DNA of 64,000 bases from an uncultured Acidobacteriota bacterium (GTDB lineage: Bacteria; Acidobacteriota; Vicinamibacteria; Vicinamibacterales; CAVVIG01), in the NCBI GenBank assembly GCA_963792175.1, contig CAWBVG010000053.1, forward strand, positions 65,013 through 129,012. The letters are read 5' to 3'. This document shows, piece after piece, positions 4,543 to 62,483 of the stretch. Under the pieces are notes generated by a model. The model was not told the DNA's origin. It worked only from the letters and a program-made list of their open reading frames with translations, and ran no database searches. The translations under genes were made by a program, and so were the position numbers. The stretch's first letter is position 1. Every line of letters begins with the position of its first letter.

Positions 4543-5478
4543 CACGATCGGCGTGATGGTCACTTTGCGATACGTCACCTTCTCGTGGTCCCCCTGGATC
4601 ATGATCGGGCCTGGCTCGGTTTCGGCCGCATCGAGTGCGCCGCCCGTGATCGCTTCGAGCGTGGCATTGTCGTGCACCTTCTTGCCGTTCAGGACGACCG
4701 TGACCTTGTTGCCCACGAGGGTCGCGTCCATCGTCTGCCATTCCCCGGCAGGCTTGCTCGCGTTCACCGCCGGGGCCTTCCACGCATAGATCGACATGTG
4801 CCCGTGCGTTTCTGGCGGCTTGCCATAGTCGTCGAGCACCTGCAGCTCATAGCGCCCCCGCAGGTAGATGCCGCTGTTGCTGTTGGTCTCGAGCTTGTAC
4901 TCCGCGTGGATCTTGAAGTCCTGGAACTTCTGCTTCGAGACCAGGTTGTTGGCGTGCGGCGTGTTCGTCATCGCGCCGTCGACCACCGTCCAGCCGGACG
5001 GCTTGGTCTGGTCCTGCACGCCCCAGGCATCCATCGACGTGCCGTCGAAGAGGTCGATCGGCTTGCCCAGCTTGTGCGGCGCGTTGGCGTCGGACGGCGG
5101 CCACTTCGGCGGACGCGCGCCGGTGAACTCGATCGTGCGCGCCGGCGTCTTGATGGTTCCGGCCAGCGTGGTTCCCTTCATGCGCGCCCGATACTCCGGC
5201 GCCGGACCGCGTGCAGGCGCCGTGCCCTGGAAGAACAGCTCGCCGTTTTCGACTTTCACCGTGGCGAGCTTCACCGGGCTGCCGCCGCGATTGAGGAACA
5301 TCCCGGTCAACTGTCCGCCTTCGTCCTTGATCTCGAGCCAGTAGATGCCGCCGTCAGGGCCGATGCCGGTGAGATTCCAGCGACCGAGGTACGGATTCTC
5401 GGCGGCGATTGACGCGACGGCCGACGCGATAGCAATCGCGGCGACCAGGGCAACGCAATAAGTGGCGTGACGGCTCAT
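4543..5478 (-). CDS. Secreted DUF1080 / 3-keto-disaccharide hydrolase family protein; expected stop codon missing
   Basis: Inside ORF 3625..5604. ATG 5478 with GGAAGG SD, followed by a signal peptide. ..NSGIYLRGRYELQVLD..IMIQGDHEKVTYRKVTITPI matches the family C-terminus. There is no in-frame stop near 4543, so the ORF runs on antisense to the NRAMP gene. Confidence 0.75.
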
Positions 5479-16487: not shown

Positions 16488-16492
16488 CGCCT

Positions 16493-16542
16493 CGAAGTCT
16501 CAAGACTCAAGTCTCAACTCTCAGACTGAGCTTGAGACTTCG
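16493..16542. repeat. Hairpin built from TCAAGTCTCA words
   Basis: CGAAGTCTCAAG (16493..16504) pairs perfectly with CTTGAGACTTCG (16531..16542). An inner 8 bp with one bulge extends the stem. Starts 6 nt after the receiver gene stop. Confidence 0.8.
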
Positions 16543-16598
16543 GCGCGCTTCTATAATCGACGGCATGACGAGCCCGGTAGGCGCCGGCGCGTTGCGTT

Positions 16599-23524: not shown

Positions 23525-23629
23525 CAGATCAAAACACGAAGATCGAAGATCAGGAGACATTTTGGTTTTGTTTTCCCAAAGAGAACTCCTGATCTCCTGA
23601 TCTCCTGTTAGAAATCTCTTGATCTCAAG
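23525..23629. repeat. Hairpin built from GATCAGGAG / CTCCTGATC words
   Basis: GATCAGGAG (23548..23556) pairs with CTCCTGATC (23586..23594) around a T-rich 29-nt loop. Extra copies of the word on both sides. Six GATC sites. Confidence 0.75.
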
Positions 23630-24705: not shown

Positions 24706-24719
24706 CAGACGGCCGGCAG

Positions 24720-24797
24720 ATTGGTGAGTTCGGTGAATTGGTGAATTGAGTGAATTCACACTCACCCAATTCACCCATTCACCAATTCGCCAATTGC
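24720..24797. repeat. Long imperfect hairpin built from GGTGAATT / AATTCACC words
   Basis: Left ATTGGTG AGTTCGGTG AATTGGTG AATTGAGTG. Right AATTCACACTCACCC AATTCACCC ATTCACC AATTCGCC AATTGC. Helices of about 6, 7, 7 and 6 bp. Confidence 0.75.
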
Positions 24798-26688: not shown

Positions 26689-26762
26689 GAACTCTCAAGT
26701 TCAAGTCTCAGTCTCAGTGTCCGGGAGCGGGTAAGAGTTGAGCCTTGAAAGTTGAGACTTGA
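26689..26762. repeat. Inverted TCAAGTCTCA / TGAGACTTGA pair with flanking 6-7 nt periodic copies
   Basis: TCAAGTCTCA (26701..26710) and TGAGACTTGA (26753..26762) are a perfect 10-bp pair. The right side reads GAGTTG AGCCTTG AAAGTTG AGACTTG. Confidence 0.7.
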
Positions 26763-34034: not shown

Positions 34035-34121
34035 TTCACGAAGCCACAAGGCCGCACGAAGGCCACGAAGCCTTCGTGCAAAGATTTCTTCGTGATCTTC
34101 GTGACCTCGTGCCTTCGTGAA
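34035..34121. repeat. Multi-helix hairpin: four CACGAAG-type words facing five CTTCGTG-type words
   Basis: Outer perfect 9 bp: TTCACGAAG 34035..34043 with CTTCGTGAA 34113..34121. Inner 7-bp helices: 34055..34061 with 34097..34103, and 34064..34070 with 34088..34094. Confidence 0.8.
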
Positions 34122-50034: not shown

Positions 50035-51505
50035 GAATGCTCCCGAGCGCGGGATAAAGACGCGTGTAAGCGGCGTACTGACGGTTCATCGCAGTGACAT
50101 GCGCCGGTCGAGGCTCCGTCACGGTGGCCCGGCGCACCAGAGCATCGCACGCGGCGTCCACCGTTGGCCAGAGTCCGATGCCGACGGCGGCCAGAATCGC
50201 GGCGCCGTAGGCGGCGCCTTCATCGGCCTGCACCGTGTCGACGGTGCGGCCATAGACGTCGGCCTGAATCTGGCGCCACAGCGGCGAGCGCGACCCGCCG
50301 CCGCCCAGCCGCACGCTCTCCAGCGGCAGGTCGAGCTCGGAAAAGATCGAGAAGGTGTCCCGCAGGCTGAACGCCACGCCCTCCATGATCGCCCGGACGA
50401 TGTGGCCGCGCCCGTGATTGGCGGCCAGGCCGGCGAGCGCGGCGCGGGCGTTCGGGTCGCAATGCGGCGTCCGTTCGCCCATCAGATACGGCGCCCACAG
50501 CACGCCGTCGGCGCCGGGCTCGACGCGCGCCGCTTCCGCGGTCAGATCGTCGTACGACACGCCGCCCACGATCTGATCGCGGAACCACTTCAGCGACAAA
50601 CCGGCGGCCTGCGTCACGCCCATCACGTGCCATCGTCCCGGGATCGCATGGCAGAACGTGTGGATGCGGCCGCGAGGATCGGTGGCGGGCCGATCGGTCG
50701 CGGCAAAGACGACGCCCGATGTCCCAATGGTCGCGCTCACCGCGCCGGGCCGTGTGATCCCCATGCCGATGGCGCCGGCCGCCTGATCGCCCGCGCCGGC
50801 GACGATCGGCGTGCCGGCGGACAGGCCGGTGAGCGCGGCCGCCTCGCGGGACACCTGCGCGGCAACCGCCGGCGACTCGAACACCGCGGGCAGCAGGCGT
50901 TCGTCGACGCCCACGGCGTCCAGCATCTCGCGCGACCAGCGCCGGTGCGTCACGTCGAGCATCAGCGTGCCCGACGCGTCCGCGACATCGATTGCGTGCT
51001 CGCCGCTCAGCTGAAAGCGGATGTAATCCTTCGGCAGGAGCACGTGGCGCACGCGATTCCACAGGTCCGGCTCGTGGCGGCGTACCCAGAGGAGTTTCGT
51101 CAGCGTGAAATTCGTGAGCGCGGGATTCGACGTCAGCTGGAGCAGCCGATCGCGGCCGACGGTGTCGTCCAGCCACCGGCACTCGGCCTCGGTGCGCTGA
51201 TCGCACCAGATGATCGACGGCCGCAGGACCGCGCCGGCCGCGTCGAGCAGCACCGCGCCGTGCATCTGTCCGGAGAGACCGATGCACGAGATGGCGTCGG
51301 CAGCGACGCCGGTCTGCGACAGCACCGAGCGCAAGGCGTCCTGCGACGCGCGCCACCAGTCGGCGGGATCCTGCTCCGCCCACGCCGTGCGGGGCGACGC
51401 GAACGGCGCGTGATCCGCCGTCGCCGAGCCGAGGAGCGCGCCATCTTCGCCGAGCAGCAGGGCACGGGTGCCGCCGGTGCCGACGTCAATACCCAGAACC
51501 GGAAT
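50027..51505 (-). CDS. xylB: Xylulokinase (FGGY family); no canonical start codon
   Basis: ORF 50027..51334 continues upstream in frame through [18 protein letters not shown] to a TAG, with no ATG/GTG/TTG in that stretch. ATT 51505 lies 4-5 nt after GGGAGGA. Overlaps the xylA start by 8 nt. Confidence 0.85.
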
Positions 51506-51521
51506 GGTGTCCTCCCGATCA

Positions 51522-51617
51522 GGGTTCTAGAGTTCTAGGGTTCTAGGGTTCACGCGGCGAACGTTGGAACCCGAAAACAGAACTTTGGAACCCTGAGAAC
51601 TCTGGAACCTTCGAACG
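51522..51617. repeat. Dyad of GGGTTCTA octamers (3.5 copies) facing GGAACCC / GAGAAC units
   Basis: GGGTTCTA GAGTTCTA GGGTTCTA GGGTTC, a 15-nt loop, then GAACCC, CAGAAC, GGAACCC, GAGAAC, GGAACC, CGAACG. Confidence 0.75.
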
Positions 51618-54588: not shown

Positions 54589-54607
54589 GTGGTCACCCGG
54601 CCGCTGT

Positions 54608-54679
54608 CGGGGCTGGGGACTGGGGGCTAGCTGCCAATGTTGTTGTCTCTGGACAGCTAGCCCGTAGCCCCTAGCCCCG
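54608..54679. repeat. Hairpin of GGGGCT-type heptads
   Basis: 26-nt arms CGGGGCTGGGGACTGGGGGCTAGCTG and CAGCTAGCCCGTAGCCCCTAGCCCCG pair at 22/26 positions. 20-nt loop. Confidence 0.8.
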
Positions 54680-54690
54680 ATCGTGCCGCG

Positions 54691-55587
54691 TCAGTGGCTG
54701 GTCGCGGTCGTGACGGCGGCAAGGACGCCGCGCATGTAGGCCATCGATTCGATCATGCCCTGCAGCGGCGCCTTGGCGTTGATCTGGTACTCGAGGCCGA
54801 CCTGACCCTGGTAGCCGATTTCGATCAGGGTCCTGAACAGCGCCGGGAAGTCGATCACGCCCTTGCCGACTTCGACCTGACTCTCCCGCTCGCTCTTCGA
54901 CGCCAGGTCCTTGACGTGCATGTCGTACAGGCGATCGCGGCACTCGCGGCACGCCTGCACCGGGTCGGTGCCCGTACGCAGCGTGTGGCCGATGTCGATG
55001 CAGAGTCCCAGCCGCTTATCGCGCGACTTCACGGCGGCGTACGCGTCGCGGGGCGCCGGCCAGTTCTTGTTCTCTGGCCCGTGATTGTGGATGGCGACCT
55101 TGATGTCGTACGTCTTCGCCATCTGCTCGAGTGTATCGAGGGCGGCCGGATCGGGATCCACGTAGATCAGCGGGAACCCGGCGTTCTTCGCGTACTCGAA
55201 TTCCTTCTTGATCTGCGCCGCGTCGTTCTTGATGGTGATCGTCCCGCCGCCCATGATCGTGATGCCGGCGGCTTCGATCTTCGCGCGCAGCGCACGTGTC
55301 GCCTCCGGCGGATCGGTCCGCGGCACGTGCACATCCTTGAACGTCATGTACTTGACGTCCATGAGCTTGGCCCACGCCAGCGCCTGGTCGAGCGGAAACT
55401 CCCGCATCGAGTACGAGGCGAGCCCCAGCTTCAGACGCTCCGGTTTACCACCAGCCGGCGGCGCGGTTGACGTCGTCCCGGCCCCGGGCGTGGCCGATTC
55501 CGCGCCGGTGACCCGGCCAAGGCTCGTCCAGGCGGCGGCAGCCGCCACGGTCCCCACGAAGCGGCGGCGAGAGCGATCAGTGGTCAT
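54691..55587 (-). CDS. Tat-exported sugar phosphate isomerase/epimerase (TIM barrel), second copy
   Basis: ORF 54691..55932, ATG 55587 with AAGGAG SD. Tat leader DRSRRRFVGTVAAAAAW. Intact. Confidence 0.8.
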   Translation of the reverse strand: MTTDRSRRRFVGTVAAAAAWTSLGRVTGAESATPGAGTTSTAPPAGGKPERLKLGLASYSMREFPLDQALAWAKLMDVKYMTFKDVHVPRTDPPEATRALRAKIEAAGITIMGGGTITIKNDAAQIKKEFEYAKNAGFPLIYVDPDPAALDTLEQMAKTYDIKVAIHNHGPENKNWPAPRDAYAAVKSRDKRLGLCIDIGHTLRTGTDPVQACRECRDRLYDMHVKDLASKSERESQVEVGKGVIDFPALFRTLIEIGYQGQVGLEYQINAKAPLQGMIESMAYMRGVLAAVTTATSH

Positions 55588-55738: not shown

Positions 55739-57211
55739 GTGGCCATCAACCAGGACGACAAGACCATATCGCGGCGCGAATTCGCCTCCAAAGTGGGTGC
55801 GGTGGCGGCGGGAATCGCAGTCGGCAGTGAATTCCTCAGCTCGAAGGCCGAGGCCGCGGCGGCCGCCGCCCCTCGCGCTGCCCGGCGGATCCTCGGCGCG
55901 AACGACCGCGTCGTGACCGCCAGCATCGGCATCCGCGGTCAGGGCAACTCCCTGAAGCGCGGGTTCGCGAAGCTCCAGAACGTCGAGATCAAAACGCTGT
56001 GCGACATCGACGCCAACCTGGCGCCCGAGCGGATCAACGACGCGCGCCTGAGCGACGTGACCACATTCAAGCCCGGGTTCGTCCAGGACATGCGGCGCGT
56101 GTTCGACGACAAGGACATCGACGCGGTCGTCATCGCCACGCCGAACCACTGGCACGCGCTGGCGACGATCTGGGCGCTCCAGGCCGGCAAGCACGTCTAC
56201 GTCGAGAAGCCGTCATCGCACACGGTGGTGGAAGGCCGCCGGATGGTGGAGGCGGCGCAGCGCTACAACATGATCGTGCAGGTCGGCACGATGAACCGCA
56301 GCCGGCCCGCGGTGAAGGACGCCATCAAGTTCATTCACGAAGGCGGCCTCGGCAAGGTCTACATGGCGCGCGGGCTCTGCTACAAGCCGCGTCCGGCGAT
56401 CGGCAAGTACCCGGATGGGCCGATGCAGCCTGGCGAGAAGTACGCGCTCACGCTGACGTCGACCAACTACGAGCCGACCTACGACGCGCAGTACCTGTCC
56501 AAGGTCGATTACGACCTGTGGCTCGGCCCCGCGGCGAAGCGGCCGTTCAACCGCAACCGCTTCCACTACAACTGGCACTGGCACTGGGACTACGGCAACG
56601 GCGACAGCGGCAACCAGGGTCCGCACCAGTTCGACATCGCGCGCTGGGGCCTGCAGAAGCAGGAACACCCGGTGAAGATCAAGTCGGTCGGCGCCTACGC
56701 CGGCGAGGAATCGTCGCAGGAGACACCGAACTACCAGAACAGCTTCTTCGAATACGCCGACGGCGCGATCCTCGAGTTCGGCACGCGCGGCGGCTTCACC
56801 AACGACGAAGGCAGCGTCAAGATCGGCAACCTGTTCTACGGCACGAAAGGCTGGCTGTGGATCGAGGAGTCAGGGAAGAAATGGCAGTCGTACTTCGGAC
56901 CCAAGAACGAGAAGGGTCCCGGAGCCGACGCGCCCGACGCCGAACCCACCGGCCTGACGACGACGGAGTATCCGCACTACCAGAACTTCATCGACGCCAT
57001 CCGCGCCGGCGATCCCAAGCTGTTGACCTGCGACGTCAACGAAGGGCACCTGTCCTCGACGCTGCCGCACCTGGGCAACATCTCGTACCAGGTCGGCCAC
57101 AGCCTCGTGTTCGACGGGAAATCCGAAACGTTCGTTGACGACAAGAAAGCGGACAAGCTGCTGACCCGCGAGTACCGGAAAGGGTTCGAGCTGCCGAAGT
57201 CGTTCACGTAG
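55739..57211 (+). CDS. Tat-exported Gfo/Idh/MocA-family oxidoreductase
   Basis: ORF 55694..57211. GTG 55739 gives MAINQDDKTISRREFASKVGAVAAG. ASIGIRGQG, VEKP. Intact. Confidence 0.85.
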   Translation: MAINQDDKTISRREFASKVGAVAAGIAVGSEFLSSKAEAAAAAAPRAARRILGANDRVVTASIGIRGQGNSLKRGFAKLQNVEIKTLCDIDANLAPERINDARLSDVTTFKPGFVQDMRRVFDDKDIDAVVIATPNHWHALATIWALQAGKHVYVEKPSSHTVVEGRRMVEAAQRYNMIVQVGTMNRSRPAVKDAIKFIHEGGLGKVYMARGLCYKPRPAIGKYPDGPMQPGEKYALTLTSTNYEPTYDAQYLSKVDYDLWLGPAAKRPFNRNRFHYNWHWHWDYGNGDSGNQGPHQFDIARWGLQKQEHPVKIKSVGAYAGEESSQETPNYQNSFFEYADGAILEFGTRGGFTNDEGSVKIGNLFYGTKGWLWIEESGKKWQSYFGPKNEKGPGADAPDAEPTGLTTTEYPHYQNFIDAIRAGDPKLLTCDVNEGHLSSTLPHLGNISYQVGHSLVFDGKSETFVDDKKADKLLTREYRKGFELPKSFT

Positions 57212-57302
57212 AGAAACCGTATCAGCAACCTTCTGATCGTCATCGGCGTCTGCGCGCTTGGCCTCAACGCGGCCATCGTCGCGCAGACGCCTTCTGCCTC
57301 TG

Positions 57303-57452
57303 CAGCCAGTCCGCAGCCCCGAGCTCGTCGTTCCGTTTCAACAGCTAGCCCCCAGCCCCGAGCCCCTGTTTCCGTTTTTGCAGCTAGCCCCGAGCCCCTA
57401 GCCCCTGTCTCGTTTTCTGCAGCCGAGCCCCCAGCCCCCAGACCCGACGACC
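57303..57452. repeat. 39-nt tandem repeat, about 3.8 copies (CAGCTAGCCCCnAGCCCCnAGCCCCTGTyTCCGTTTTyG)
   Basis: Units start at 57303, 57342, 57381, 57420. Only the C-rich word is present; there is no G-rich partner. Confidence 0.8.
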
Positions 57453-57497
57453 GCGGCCCGGTTCCCCGACGGCGCCGGCCGCGATGCGCTCTTCAAG

Positions 57498-57845
57498 GTG
57501 TGCAAGGACTGTCACGGCCCGGAGAGTGTCCTGGCGCAGCTGAAGTCGCGCGACGAGTGGAGCAAGACGCTCGACGAGATGGCGGCGAACGGCGCGCAGG
57601 GCAGCGACCAGGAGTGGACCGACATCCTCGAGTACCTCGCCAGACACTTTTCACCGATCGCGGTGAACAAGGCGACCGCGACGGAGCTGGCCGCCACCCT
57701 CGATGTGCCGGCTGCCGTCGCCGAAGCGATCGTGCGGGCCCGCACCGAAAAAGGACGCCTGGCGTCGATTGACGATCTGAAACAGGCAGCCGGCGGCGAG
57801 GCCGCGCCGAAGATCGACGCGCGAAAAGATCGGCTCGTTTTCTAA
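57498..57845 (+). CDS. c-type cytochrome domain plus helix-hairpin-helix protein; true 5' end unresolved
   Basis: The ORF begins inside ..ALFKVCKDCHGPE (CxxCH). C-terminal ComEA-like HhH (TELAATLDVPAAVAEAIV, RLASIDDL). A leader-like segment lies upstream in another frame (about 57221..57290). Confidence 0.6.
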   Translation: MCKDCHGPESVLAQLKSRDEWSKTLDEMAANGAQGSDQEWTDILEYLARHFSPIAVNKATATELAATLDVPAAVAEAIVRARTEKGRLASIDDLKQAAGGEAAPKIDARKDRLVF

Positions 57846-57846
57846 C

Positions 57847-57921
57847 GCCACGAAGACACGAAAGCACCCTCGACAAGCTGGGATATGCATTATGGTGAGC
57901 GTGTCGAACCGTCTTCGTGGC
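57847..57921. repeat. Hairpin with CACGAAG-family stem
   Basis: GCCACGAAGAC (57847..57857) pairs perfectly with GTCTTCGTGGC (57911..57921). 53-nt interior. Confidence 0.7.
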
Positions 57922-57940
57922 TAACCCGACGGAAGAAACC

Positions 57941-59593
57941 ATGCGCAGAATCACTGTCTGGACCGTTCTCCTGGCGTGCCTCGCCATCCTGCCGCTGCGC
58001 GGCGCCGAGTGGGTCACGCACAGCGGCGACAATCAGCGCACCGGCTGGCAGAAGAACGAGACCGCGATCTCGAAGGACTCGGTCAAGAACCTGAAGCTGC
58101 TGTGGAAGATCACGCTCGACACCAAGCAGCGATCGGTTTACTCCCTGTACGGTCCGCTGATCGTCGAGCGCGCCATCACGGACCGCGGTTTCAAGGAGCT
58201 GGCGATCGTCGCGGGCGCCGACAACGATCTCTTCGCCGTCGACGCGGACCTCGGCAAGCTGTTCTGGAAAAAACATTTCGAGTGGCACGCGGACGTGCCC
58301 GAAACCACGCAGGCGTCGTTTCTCTGTCCTGGCGGGCTGACAGCGTGGCCGGTGCTTCAGCCACTGCCGCAGCGAGGCCGCGGCGCACCCGCGCCGCCGG
58401 CCGCGCCCGCACCGACTCCGCCCACAGCAACGACGACGGCCCCGGCTGCGGCCGGACCACAGCGAGGCGGCAGTCCCTTCGCGGTCCGCTCGGTGTTCGC
58501 GCTCACCGGCGACGGCAACCTGCAGCAGGTGAACATCAACACCGGCGACACGGCGCCGCCGGTCAAGTTCCTGCCGCCCAACGGCAAGCCGTACAGCCTC
58601 GCGCTGGTCGACAACATCATCTACACGATCACCGGTCAGGGCTGCGGCGGGAACCCGAACAGCGTCTATTCCCTGGACCTGAACGATCCGGCGAAAACGG
58701 TGCGCTACTGGCGGTCGGGAAGCGGCGGGTTGTGGGGCACCGCGGGTCCTGCGATCGGCGCCGATGGAACCGTGTACGCGGAGACTGGCGACGGCCAAAC
58801 CGATCCGGCGGCCAACCGTTACGCCAACGCGGTGATTGCGTTGACGCCCAAGGAATTGAAACTGAAAGACTGGTATGCGCCGACCAATGCCGAGTGGCTC
58901 TACAAGCGCGATCTCGACATGAACGTCACGCCCGTGGTCTTTCCGTACAAAGGCCGCGAGCTGCTGGTCGGCTCGGGCAAAGAAGGGCGTTTCTTCCTGC
59001 TCGACTCGCAGTCGCTCGGCGGCACCGATCACCGGACGCCGCTGTTCCGATCCGATTTGATCTCGAACGAGGACATCGACTTCGCCGGCGCCGGCACGTG
59101 GGGCAGCCTGTCGTCGTGGGAAGACGCGCAGGGGACGCGCTGGGTGCTCGCGCCGGTCTGGGGGCCGAAGCATCCGAGCGCGACGTTCGCGATGAACAAC
59201 GGCGACGCCAACGTCGGCAGCATCGCCGCGTTCAAAGTCGAAGAGAAGGGCGGCAAGCCGGTCCTCACCAACGCGTGGATTTCCCGAAACCTCATGACGC
59301 CGGCGGCACCCGCGGTGGCCAACGGCGTCGTTTTCGCCCTGGCGAGCGGCGAGTGGGTGCGCCAGGCGAACGATCGAGAAGGCGGCCTGTATCAGGTGGA
59401 TGCCCGCGTGCAGCGATCGCAGCCGGCCATCCTGTACGCGCTCGACGCGGCCACCGGCAAGGAACTGTGGTCGAGCGGCAGCCAGGTGACGGCGTTCACG
59501 CACAACGGGCAGCTGACGATCGCGAACGGGCGCGTCTACTTCACGACCTACGACAACACGCTGTACTGCTTCGGCTTCCCGATGGAACACTGA
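57941..59593 (+). CDS. PQQ-like / BamB-like beta-propeller repeat protein, intact
   Basis: ORF 57917..59593, ATG 57941 leader MRRITVWTVLLACLAILPLRGA. HSGDNQRTGW. Pro/Ala-rich insert. Confidence 0.7.
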   Translation: MRRITVWTVLLACLAILPLRGAEWVTHSGDNQRTGWQKNETAISKDSVKNLKLLWKITLDTKQRSVYSLYGPLIVERAITDRGFKELAIVAGADNDLFAVDADLGKLFWKKHFEWHADVPETTQASFLCPGGLTAWPVLQPLPQRGRGAPAPPAAPAPTPPTATTTAPAAAGPQRGGSPFAVRSVFALTGDGNLQQVNINTGDTAPPVKFLPPNGKPYSLALVDNIIYTITGQGCGGNPNSVYSLDLNDPAKTVRYWRSGSGGLWGTAGPAIGADGTVYAETGDGQTDPAANRYANAVIALTPKELKLKDWYAPTNAEWLYKRDLDMNVTPVVFPYKGRELLVGSGKEGRFFLLDSQSLGGTDHRTPLFRSDLISNEDIDFAGAGTWGSLSSWEDAQGTRWVLAPVWGPKHPSATFAMNNGDANVGSIAAFKVEEKGGKPVLTNAWISRNLMTPAAPAVANGVVFALASGEWVRQANDREGGLYQVDARVQRSQPAILYALDAATGKELWSSGSQVTAFTHNGQLTIANGRVYFTTYDNTLYCFGFPMEH

Positions 59594-59620
59594 CAGCTGC
59601 CTGCAGTGCCCTGTCCGATG

Positions 59621-59704
59621 GCCACGATAAGCCACGAAAGCACGAAAGATCAGCTAGCTCTCGAGAGATGCTCCGTATCTTCGGTGTTTTCGTGTTTTCG
59701 TGGC
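59621..59704. repeat. Hairpin with CACGAAA-family stem overlapping the FGE translation start
   Basis: 59631..59648 pairs with 59687..59704 over 18 consecutive pairs (16 Watson-Crick plus 2 G-U). An extra GCCACGATAA word sits at 59621. Confidence 0.8.
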
Positions 59705-60680
59705 TGGCTTGCCGTCGTGGCCGCGACGGCGGTCGTTGTCGGCGCGTGCACGAAGCCGCCGGCGACGGCGCCACGCGGAATGATCCGGATCCCGGGCGGC
59801 ACGTTCCACATGGGATGCGCCGATTGCGGGATGCCGGACGCTGAACCCGTGCATCTCGTCGCCGTCGATCCGTTCTGGATGGACGAAACGCCGGTCACCA
59901 ACCAGCAGTTCGCGGCATTCGTCGCCGCGACCGGATACGTGACCATCGCCGAACGGATCCCCGACTCGAAAGACTACCCGGGCGTCCCCGTCGACAAGCT
60001 CGTCCCGGGTTCTGCGTGCTTCCGGCCTCCAGGCCGCCCCGTGCCGCTCGACAACCCGAACGCGTGGTGGGCGTATCAGCCGGGTGCCAGCTGGAAGCAG
60101 CCAGAGGGACCCGGCAGCAGCGTGCAGGGCAAGGACGATCATCCCGTGGTCCATATCGCGTGGGACGACGCGCAGGCGTATGCGGCGTGGGCAGGCAAGC
60201 GCTTGCCGACCGAAGCCGAATACGAATTCGCGGCCCGCGGCGGCCAGGACGGAAAACATTTCGCCTGGGGCGACGACCTGAAACCGGGCGGCCGATGGCC
60301 CGCCAACATCTGGCAGGGCCAGTTCCCGTCGCAGGACGCCGGCGAGGATGGCTATCGCGGGACGTCGCCCGTGAAGGCGTTTCCGCCGAACGGGTATGGC
60401 TTGTACGACGTCGGCGGCAACGTCTGGCAGTGGTGCTCGGATTGGTACCGTCCCGATTACTTCGCACAGTTGAATGCGCAAGGCACCGCGCACAATCCCA
60501 CCGGGCCGAGCGACAGCGTGGATCCGCAGGAGCCGGGCATCCCCAAGCGCGTCCAGAAAGGCGGCTCGTTCCTGTGCAGCGATCAGGTACTGCGCGCGCT
60601 ATCACGTCGGCAGTCGGGGACGCGGCGCCGCTGACAGCGGCGGCACGAACGTGGGGTTTCGATGCGTGAAGCCGGCGTGA
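59668..60680 (+). pseudogene. Formylglycine-generating enzyme (SUMF1/FGE family), two frameshifts
   Basis: RIPGGTFHMGC, WWAYQPGASWKQPEG, GGSFLCSDQYC..VGSRGRG. The ATG 59668 lipoprotein-type leader joins if one T is removed near 59710. Extra G near 60587. Confidence 0.85.
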
Positions 60681-60766
60681 TCGCGTCCGTCCACGGTGGA
60701 ACGCGACGATCGCGAAGATCGCAAGAATATTCTCGGCGGCCTTAGCGGCCTCTGCGTTCTTTCGTC

Positions 60767-62483
60767 CTACAGCGACGGATGCTTCAGATGATGATCCGTC
60801 TTCGACTGGAACGCGTGCGCCAGCAGGAGCAGTTCCGGCTCGCCGAACAGCTTCCCCGTCATCTGCAGCGCCGTCGGCGATCCGTTGAAAAACCCGTTCG
60901 GCAGGCTGATGACGGGATGACCGGTGCGATTCGTCAGCAGCTGGTTCGCGCCGATGAACAGGTCGAGCCCGGACATCGCGGCGTCGATCTGTTCCATCAC
61001 CCGCATGCGATACCGGTTGGCCTGGATGTACTCCACCGCCGGAATGAAGCGCGCCGGCCGAATCTCCGCCGGGCGCGGACTCTGCTCCGGACCGCGCTCG
61101 ACGTCGCGGAGCCTGCCGCTGCGCGTCAGATCGTCGAAGGCCGCGGCGGTTTCCGCGTACCGGATGAAGTCGATGGCCTCGATCGCGACCTCCGGCAGGT
61201 CGAACGGCGCCACCTGCACACCGAGACCGCGAATCACGCGGATCGCCTCCTCGTAGTTCCGGCGCGTCGCGTCCTGCTCTGACGACCCGCTGCCAGCCGC
61301 GCCCGCGGGTCCCTCGTCCAGAATCGAGCGGAGGTACCCGACACGCAGCTTCGCGACATCCGCTGACGCGTCCCACCCGAACGGCACGTCGAGGACGCTG
61401 TTGTCTTTTCCGTCCGGACCGTAGATCGCGTCGAAGACAACGGCGCAGTCTTCGGCCGAGCGGCACAGGGGGCCGACGGTATCCTGCGTCCACGCCAGGG
61501 TCATCGCGCCGTATCGGCTCACTCGGCCGAAAGTCGGCCGCATGCCGGTGACGCCGTTGCGAGCCGACGGAGCAATGACCGATCCGCCGGTGTCGCTCCC
61601 AATCGAGAAGGCGACCAGCCCCGCGGCGGTGGCGGACCCGGGGCCGGCTGAGGAGCCGGCCGCGTCCTGCTGCAGGTTCCACGGGTTGCGCGTCACGCCG
61701 CCGAACCACTGCGCGGTGAACGCGAGCGCGCCGGTCGACAGTTTCGCGACCAGGATCGCGCCGGCGTTCCTCAGCTTCGTGTACACCGTGGCGTCGGTGT
61801 CGATGATCCGATCCTTGTACGGCGAGATACCCCAGGTCGTCTTCGTCCCTCGAACCGCGAACAGGTCCTTCAACCCGAAGGGAATCCCGTGCAGCGGACC
61901 ACGGTACCGGCCGGCGGCGATCTCCGCGTCGGCCTGCTTCGCCTGCGTTCGCGCCAGATCCGCCGTGAGGTTGACGACGCAGTGGAGTGCGGGATCGTGT
62001 GCGGTCAGCCGCGCGAGATACAGCTCGGTGAGCTCCGACGGCTTGATCTGACGCGACTTCACCAGCTTCGCGAGATGCGTCACCGGCAGGAACGCGAGGG
62101 CCTCGTCGCTCGACGGCTTCGACACGAGCGGTTCGCGACGCTTGAGGCCGCGTGGTCCGGCGGGCAGCGTCTTGCCCGGCGGAACCGGGTTGAACACGAC
62201 GGCGGGCTGCGTATCATTGCCGAGATTGGCGGTCTTCAGAAAACGAAACCCCGCCAGCGTAGCCGCGGGTCGCGTTCAGCCGGGTCGCGATCGCCTGCTG
62301 CTCCTCGCGGGTGAACGTGATGCCGGCGAGGGTCTGCGCCGCCTCGATCATCTCGATCGTGATGGTGTCCGAGTCCTGAGCCGCGATCGTCAGCGCGTCC
62401 GGCATCAGCGTCGAGCCGAGGCCGATCGCGGAGAGGCACTCGAAAAACCTCCGGCGATTCACCGCGAGTCGTTCGTCGTTCAC
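60767..62483 (-). pseudogene. Tat-exported amidase (amidase signature family), one frameshift
   Basis: GTG 62483 leader VNRRRFFECLSAIGLG. Signature GSSAGPGSATAAG..GSDTGGS. Extra G in a G-run near 62250. Confidence 0.85.

Follow-up and report, generated by a model that had tools for sequence, protein, structure and literature searches.

A stem-loop at the start of an Acidobacteriota formylglycine-generating enzyme gene appears to be a copy of a dispersed palindromic repeat

The stem-loop at 59621-59704 of the window (the whole 64-kb stretch of DNA that we analysed) lies between a gene for a PQQ-like beta-propeller protein and a gene for a formylglycine-generating enzyme (FGE), and its sequence pattern identifies it as a member of a dispersed palindromic repeat family that we call CACGAARN. 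On balance, we favor the view that this hairpin is a REP-like intergenic palindromic repeat located behind the PQQ stop codon, that its right arm has been partly exapted as the 5' end of the FGE gene, and that it probably dampens FGE initiation constitutively. Nothing in our analysis points to a signal-dependent switch at the FGE gene, and we observed no sign of a purpose-built one.

Results

Geometry and predicted fold of the stem-loop

On the plus strand, the 5' arm, GCCACGAAAGCACGAAAG (59631-59648), pairs with the 3' arm, TTTTCGTGTTTTCGTGGC (59687-59704), through 16 Watson-Crick pairs and 2 G-U pairs (G59640-T59695 and G59648-T59687) around a 38-nt loop (59649-59686), exactly as described in the sequence-only reading that preceded this work. 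The left (5') arm is composed of GC followed by two units, CACGAAAG, and the right (3') arm is composed of two units, TTTTCGTG, followed by GC and corresponds to FGE codons 2-7 (F S C F R G). A degenerate third unit of the left arm, GCCACGATAA (59621-59630), lies outside the stem and has a 2-nt insertion relative to its counterparts in related loci. Consistent with this organization, TRF detects an 8-nt unit that is repeated 3.1 times at 59621-59648 and 2.4 times at 59684-59702. When more flanking sequence is included, the minimum free energy (MFE) structure also pairs the outer GGCCACGA (59620-59627) with TCGTGGCC (59714-59721). In the loop lie an out-of-frame ATG (59668) and GAGAG, a decayed form of the Shine-Dalgarno sequence that is GGAGG in relatives.

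The stem is far beyond chance expectation: the plus-strand RNA of 59618-59710 folds with -39.5 kcal/mol, compared with -24.4 ± 3.2 kcal/mol for shuffled sequences (z = -4.69), and none of 200 shuffles folds as well. The minus-strand RNA is less stable at the stem (-35.4 kcal/mol). The CACGAA unit pattern occurs four times in the window, where 0.55 occurrences would be expected. An Rfam search of the whole window at the gathering threshold, and of the region around the stem at E<=10, returned only a chance miRNA hit. A scan of 57200-60800 for sigma-70 promoters and terminators found no promoter at the hairpin and no intrinsic terminator at 59620-59720. The sequence that follows the stem on its 3' side, GGCTGGCTTGCC, contains no U-tract, and we rejected an intrinsic (Rho-independent) terminator at 59620-59720, as the combination of a GC-rich stem and a U-tract is absent there.

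Neighboring genes and the FGE start codon

The upstream PQQ-like beta-propeller gene (57941-59593, plus strand; PF13360/PF01011) ends with a TGA codon at 59591-59593, and its counterpart in the syntenic locus L006 encodes 549 aa. The left arm lies 37 nt past this stop codon in the window, 26 nt past it in L006 and 13 nt past it in L026; the copy itself begins 26-37 nt past it. In the syntenic contigs, the gene order is GFO/IDH/MocA, HHH_3, PQQ_2 and FGE, followed by an amidase gene and a sulfatase gene on the minus strand. Downstream of the hairpin, the FGE-family gene (59684-60680, plus strand) encodes a domain (MIRIPGGTFHMGC...) that matches PF03781 with E = 6e-75 over residues 31-309, counted from GTG 59684. 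The domain is of the FGE-sulfatase type, and homologues that are 85-90% identical carry the FGE name.

Relative to L006, the window has +1 insertions at 60586 (a G in the FGE gene), 62258 (amidase gene) and 62944 (sulfatase gene), each of which shifts its reading frame and none of which is compensated by a second indel. The insertions at 60586 and 62258 are missing from soil contigs that are at least 98% identical. The insertions probably reflect indel errors in the assembly, with private pseudogenes as the other explanation; in both cases, single-base details of the window are to be taken with care.

The frame of the FGE domain is shared by GTG 59606, ATG 59618 and GTG 59684, and its translation reads MATISHES...VFSCFRGWLAVVAATAVVVGAC...MIRIPGG, also written ...VFSCFRGWLAVVAATAVVVGACTKPP.... 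The sequence-only reading had named ATG 59668 as the probable start codon and had assigned to the 3' arm a leader with the residues GVFVFSW. We rejected this ATG, which is out of the FGE frame, opens a reading frame (MLRIFGVFVFSW..., also written MLRIFGVFVFSWLACRRG...) that ends at 59844, and lies within a 4-nt insertion that is private to the window and absent in all related loci. The leader was likewise read in the wrong frame, as the 3' arm encodes FSCFRG in the frame of the FGE domain.

GTG 59684 (59684-59686, plus strand), which is in frame with the domain and abuts the 3' arm, is the best-supported FGE start codon. It is favored by four observations: loci L006-L011 have GGAGG 12 nt 5' of the equivalent GTG; in L149, where the PQQ and FGE genes are syntenic in the same way, this GTG is the first in-frame start codon after the upstream TGA; in soil run X4, the FGE frame of a DNA contig is interrupted by TAA 12 nt 5' of the GTG (...TGC TAA TCC GAT TTC, then GTG); and strain-to-strain homology starts exactly at 59683/59684. 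Close FGE homologues have lipoprotein-type signal peptides that end in ...GAC or ...GC, which places the start upstream of RGWLAVV...GAC, i.e., at GTG 59684 or at ATG 59618. Based on the translation and on the lipobox peptides of these homologues, we predict a lipoprotein signal peptide at 59684-59749 of the plus strand (MFSCFRGWLAVVAATAVVVGA, followed by the lipobox Cys encoded at 59747-59749). With a start at GTG 59684, the right arm would encode residues 2-7 (FSCFRG) of this signal peptide, and base pairing includes the GTG in those relatives whose arms have three units each. The earlier idea that the stem buries the start region thus holds for GTG 59684, which had been named as an alternative and which places codons 2-7 in the arm, and fails for ATG 59668.

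The CACGAARN repeat family

We defined the family as GC plus at least two units of CACGAANN, a loop, and at least two units of NNTTCGTG plus GC, in an 8-nt register, and 59631-59704 fits this pattern. Scanning metagenome contigs with GCCACGAANNCACGAA-N20-50-TTCGTGNNTTCGTGGC yielded at least 120 stretches and, together with the other loci analysed, at least 126 distinct hairpins. Among the matches listed, elements are 55-80 nt long and built from tandem units; the copies are many and all intergenic, mostly 0-60 nt past an upstream stop codon. The FGE copy, at 13-37 nt past the PQQ stop, fits this position, and its right arm enters the FGE coding sequence.

Among the matches listed, 93 copies with usable flanks reside on contigs with a GC content of 0.56-0.70 and form a GC-rich set. 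Three units per arm is the commonest form (54 of the 93), the median loop length is 17 nt, and 16 copies lie in convergent gene contexts compared with 5 in divergent ones. The ends are sharp (GC...GC), with flanks that are neither complementary nor duplicated; we found no target-site duplication in this set, and direct repeats in the flanks are at the level seen in permutations. Read from the outside inward, both arms have the order CACGAA-R-N, and approximately 97% of units have A or G as their first spacer base. A hexamer core that is conserved on both arms, next to spacers that are poorly complementary, points to recognition at the DNA level rather than to an RNA structure. Palindromic TTGTACAA, or a near variant of it, occupies the center of the loop in L036, L052, L066, L071, L072, L094 and L126 (8911-8980). 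Many GC-rich copies have TTGTACAA in mid-loop, which makes the whole element one long palindrome.

A second, AT-rich set comprises 26 copies among the matches listed (GC content of 0.32-0.44), whose arms have two units each, whose spacers are fully paired and whose flanks are made of A/T runs. Several of these loci (L027, L029, L034, L035, L041, L044, L046, L049, L051 and others) have the same ends as the GC-rich copies, GCCACGAAT..ATTCGTGGC. Three copies lie within 560 nt in L035, and the copy in L051 is situated between a murA stop codon and the start of the next gene, near a DUF4290 gene. At nine other loci (L031, L033, L053, L085, L088, L102, L108, L128 and L140), the CACGAA hairpin is nested in a longer element with a MITE-like look, which has extra flanking inverted repeats (e.g., gaatcccgagataga ... 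tctatctcgggattc) and whose inner segment, ACGGAGC...CCGTTTC, is conserved. A literature search for CACGAA repeat strings and for Vicinamibacterales repeats found no matching paper in the library searched. The family is apparently undescribed, and the kind of element is a known one.

G-U pairs and strand bias

The two G-U pairs, which exist only in the plus-strand RNA, had been taken as a sign of selection at the RNA level. Both fall on the purine spacer, i.e., the first spacer base, of the duplicated 8-nt unit, and because they occupy the same position in two duplicated units they represent one event, not two. Since a purine is found at this spacer on both arms, the resulting pair is Watson-Crick, G-U or A-C depending on which arm has G; G-U and A-C pairs thus arise symmetrically from the unit consensus.

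For a family-wide comparison, we assigned the orientation of flanking genes with a crude GC3-based ORF filter. Among the matches listed, sense-strand G-U and A-C pairs number 33 and 24 in the 34 copies located between co-directional genes (binomial p = 0.29), and 48 and 44 in the 57 singly oriented copies (p = 0.75). The mean difference between sense and antisense MFE is -0.5 kcal/mol (Wilcoxon p = 0.57), and both kinds of mismatch occur within a single hairpin in 34 cases, again among the matches listed. Within the window, the hairpins at 34035 and 59620 favor the sense strand, and the one at 51516 favors the antisense strand. By eye, a sibling copy located 5' of the PQQ gene has sense-strand A-C mismatches in L006 and L026. 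A family-wide sense-strand G-U bias is therefore absent. The sequence-only reading had itself proposed this comparison and had named a lack of strand bias as the outcome that would speak against it, and its argument for RNA-level selection does not survive at the level of the family: the G-U pairs stem from the unit consensus and are the product of one duplicated event. A sense preference specific to the FGE locus is possible, as described below.

Conservation and polymorphism at orthologous FGE loci

A hairpin occupies the same PQQ-FGE junction in L006-L011, L025 and L026. Those in L006-L011 have three units per arm, a 26-28-bp stem and a folding energy of -46.0 kcal/mol; the L025 stem spans 28 bp, closes a loop of 10 nt and folds with -45.9 kcal/mol, and L026 folds with -39.1 kcal/mol. 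In the alignment of orthologues, 90.5% of the cells at stem positions are paired, compared with 36-54% when the 3' partner is slid. Both-sided changes are present at four stem pairs, and the covariation of 0.148 exceeds the 0.096 seen in shuffles, of which 1 in 500 reaches the observed value. For example, one pair is G-U, A-U or G-C depending on the lineage, and an inner A-U pair is replaced by G-C in L025. The hairpin is thus conserved with compensatory changes in close relatives; in total, four lineages have retained it. Its loop is conserved in neither sequence nor length (38, 24, about 20 and 10 nt).

In the four hairpin lineages, the sense RNA folds more stably than its antisense counterpart, with margins of 4.1, 11.5, 6.6 and 5.6 kcal/mol, and the transition mismatches at this locus are all G-U on the sense strand, with no A-C, which fits some RNA-level constraint peculiar to this copy. 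As single-stranded DNA, the two strands of the FGE hairpin fold about equally.

The left arm is missing at the FGE locus in at least three other strains. L149 retains (TTTTCGTG)3GC as the FGE 5' end, with neither left arm nor loop. L149 is a contig of approximately 1x coverage with a 5-nt deletion of its own, and its armless allele is supported by an independent RNA-derived contig from run X29, whose upstream sequence is L149-like. In the X4 contig, the stop codon of another gene takes the place of the left arm. The X4 and X29 contigs diverge exactly at 59683/59684. As read from these contigs, the left arm is polymorphic for presence or absence among strains. Several spacer alleles exist among soil contigs whose flanking genes share at least 98% identity. 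In soil runs X3, X12 and X13, with the flanking genes at that same level of identity, the PQQ-FGE spacer at 59594-59683 is hypervariable, and from 59591/59593 onward their contigs follow either an L006-like or an L025/L149-like allele. Contigs from metatranscriptomes are interrupted at the hairpin.

In more distant Vicinamibacterales, the PQQ orthologues (L012-L017 and L022) are followed by another gene and have no hairpin, and the FGE homologues P0001, P0015 and P0016 reside in different neighborhoods where the hairpin is absent. The gp6 MAG contig L018 has a hairpin of approximately 180 nt right after its PQQ stop (approximately 4880-5060), with about eight heptamers per arm (CTCAACT/CTCAAGG), and a CACGAA-type hairpin at 1299-1376 of the same contig.

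Other repeats in the window

Two further CACGAA-type hairpins are present in the window. A sibling on the plus strand (57848-57925) lies 1.7 kb upstream, between the HHH_3 stop codon (57845) and the PQQ start codon (57941), and its inner part is decayed. The third, of CACGAAG type (34035-34121), lies between two minus-strand genes. Seven more strong intergenic hairpins of -28 to -68 kcal/mol have arms made of tandem 6-8-nt units (2920-2990, 16488-16547, 23533-23609, 24716-24797, 26690-26760, 51516-51617 and 54595-54691). Their units are GGGGACT, CTCAAGA, GATCAGGA, GGTGAATT, AGTCTC, GGGTTCTA and GGGGCTA. In total, the 64-kb window contains about ten short-unit hairpins, or approximately one per 6-8 kb, and one-armed arrays also occur in it. 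In the spacer between the GFO/IDH/MocA and HHH_3 genes, a 39-nt unit, TCTGCAGCTAGCCCCCAGCCCCGAGCCCCTGTTTCCGTT, which is itself made of AGCCCC units, is directly repeated in 3.7 copies (57299-57445); strains differ at this array, where contigs from RNA runs have loose ends. Downstream of the 51516 hairpin, a sugar-kinase-like gene on the minus strand (approximately 51505-51515) seems to begin GGGAGG-ACACC-ATT CCG GTT CTG GGT ATT GAC GTC GGC, with ATT, read by eye, at the expected position of the start codon.

Discussion

A partly exapted repeat and its rivals

According to the reading that we prefer, a dispersed repeat copy, built from two to four tandem units of CACGAA plus a purine plus any base per arm, sits behind the PQQ stop codon, and its right arm has been taken over as the FGE 5' end, supplying the GTG 59684 start and residues 2-7 of the lipoprotein signal peptide. 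On the sense transcript, the resulting hairpin of -39 to -46 kcal/mol may act mainly as a 3' stem-loop of the PQQ mRNA, through protection of the mRNA end or partial termination. Because the hairpin pairs the initiation region, with codons 2-7, and the GTG in three-unit alleles, held in a very stable helix, FGE initiation would be lowered constitutively. Ribosomes that terminate at the PQQ stop, 27-37 nt away, would leave the stem closed. The G-U pairs would simply be an outcome of the unit consensus. Several findings count against this reading: there is no U-tract and the terminator scan is blank at the hairpin, the transition mismatches at the FGE locus are exclusively sense-strand G-U, the conserved cores with poorly complementary spacers point to DNA-level recognition, and an in-frame ATG at 59618 is present in the four hairpin lineages, so that the whole hairpin might be translated.

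The latter finding leads to the proposal that the entire hairpin is coding, with FGE starting at ATG 59618, the left arm encoding an n-region of basic character (in relatives, ATKxRK...) and the right arm a hydrophobic stretch of a long signal peptide. In its favor, the frame from this ATG to the GTG is free of stop codons in all four lineages despite their differing loops, and the distances from GCCACG to the GTG (63, 57, 48 and 45 nt) are all multiples of 3, for which the chance is approximately 1 in 27; the 2-nt and 4-nt insertions of the window likewise sum to 6. The arms are stop-free in every frame, however, so an open frame comes cheaply, and the stretch enclosed by the two insertions is out of frame with L006, which leaves its peptide unconserved. 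In addition, L149 has no in-frame start codon 5' of the GTG, the X4 strain has its TAA there, no Shine-Dalgarno sequence precedes ATG 59618 while GGAGG precedes the GTG in L006, and the n-regions of homologues are only about 7-15 residues long. We regard this proposal as improbable. The original proposal of a dedicated translational gate, a hairpin that evolved at the RNA level, hides the FGE start and leader, and opens on a signal, strikes us as slightly more doubtful still. The location of the start region inside or beside the stem agrees with it, as do the 4-11.5 kcal/mol by which the sense RNA surpasses the antisense RNA in four lineages, the compensatory changes that have kept the stem, and the GGAGG in the L006 loop 12 nt before the GTG. 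Yet the same element is found at at least 120 unrelated sites, the strand bias is absent family-wide, and the G-U pairs belong to the repeat unit. Close relatives have alleles without the left arm, which indicates that FGE expression is not dependent on that arm, and the loop is unconserved. Rfam has no match, the ATG and leader on which the proposal was built are out of frame, and at -39 to -46 kcal/mol physiological melting is not expected, such that the stem could be reversible only with a helper. Thus, the claim that folding gates FGE translation gives way to a generic repeat that has armless alleles and is too stable to be a reversible gate unaided.

A serious alternative to the partly exapted repeat, although an unlikely one in our estimation, is an element that operates purely at the DNA level, with cores that a protein binds or cleaves (e.g., a nucleoid or recombination factor, or a transposase acting on non-autonomous hairpin elements). 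Such an element would be neutral or selfish, and its effects on FGE RNA, if any, would be accidental. This alternative would explain core conservation and the missing strand bias at least equally well. The CACGAA core is kept on both arms in outside-in order while the spacers are often mismatched, the GC...GC ends are sharp, copy number is high across GC-rich and AT-rich contigs, presence and unit number vary among strains that are at least 98% identical, the single-stranded DNA strands fold about equally, and a sense-strand bias is absent. Against it, target-site duplication was not found in the GC-rich set, the preference for post-stop and convergent spacers also suits a role at RNA 3' ends, and the FGE locus shows compensatory changes. 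A more far-reaching version, to which we give rather little credence, holds that CACGAARN copies are an undescribed family of core-recognized, non-autonomous hairpin elements in more than one phylum, that the FGE arm has been exapted, and that gain and loss of the opposite arm and of units would act, in soil Vicinamibacterales, as an inherited on/dim polymorphism of sulfatase maturation.

We conclude that the translational-gate reading is not convincing and that a repeat copy partly exapted into the 5' end of a gene is a modest curiosity. If our reading is right, what looks like a riboregulator arises as a side effect of a repeat family scattered in abundance through these genomes, which calls for caution in structure-based scans of Acidobacteriota. 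It would also add a seemingly undescribed family with a fixed CACGAA core, an 8-nt register and hundreds of metagenomic copies, and an example of a repeat arm that has come to provide a start codon and the N-terminus of a signal peptide. Near-identical strains with hairpin or armless alleles would then amount to a natural experiment on the effect of a repeat on a downstream gene.

Comparison with known systems

The FGE hairpin resembles start-hiding mRNA hairpins, such as the ROSE and fourU thermometers and structured initiation regions, in placing a helix over the initiation region of the sense RNA. RNA thermometers are short, mismatch-weakened helices that melt near 37-42 C, whereas the FGE stem spans 18-28 bp at -39 to -46 kcal/mol and belongs to a generic, strain-variable repeat with an unconserved loop. 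We rejected a thermometer or riboswitch-type element on the basis of the missing Rfam match, the folding energy of -39.5 kcal/mol in the window and the unconserved loop. A MITE was likewise rejected for lack of target-site duplication in the GC-rich set. Rickettsia palindromic elements (RPE) are inserted in frame into genes, and the FGE copy is similar in that a dispersed palindromic repeat supplies protein codons. It differs in that the right arm alone (seven codons including the start) is certainly coding, at the 5' edge of the gene rather than inside a folded domain.

Like the REP/BIME sequences of proteobacteria, CACGAARN elements are short, imperfect palindromes present in many copies, located in post-stop and convergent spacers, and variable among strains. 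REP/BIME sequences stabilize upstream mRNA and modulate expression within operons, and a post-stop and convergent distribution is known for REP-type elements and for terminator-like hairpins. CACGAARN arms differ in being tandem 8-nt units instead of a unique palindrome, and the FGE copy has one arm in a coding sequence. REP/BIME sequences are imperfect palindromes of 20-40 nt; CACGAARN elements measure 55-80 nt. REP super-families have a GTAG or CGTC head (PMC3733652), whereas CACGAARN elements end in GC...GC and show neither GTAG nor CGTC in their flank profile.

A more specific match is with inverted pairs of short-unit tandem arrays, known from Xanthomonas and Nostoc/Anabaena. In Xanthomonas, GGGAATC heptamer repeats form 70-75 convergent array pairs able to fold into stem-loops, and the GGGGA(C/T)T repeats of Nostoc/Anabaena are of the STRR type (PMC4692102). 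Such intergenic arrays of 7-9-nt units differ in length between related genomes or species while their type is preserved (PMC4692102). The window also contains GGGGACT and GGGGCTA hairpins. CACGAARN differs from both in its 8-nt unit, composed of the fixed hexamer CACGAA and a 2-nt spacer with no G-quadruplex, and in its occurrence in Acidobacteriota (Vicinamibacterales) and in an AT-rich lineage.
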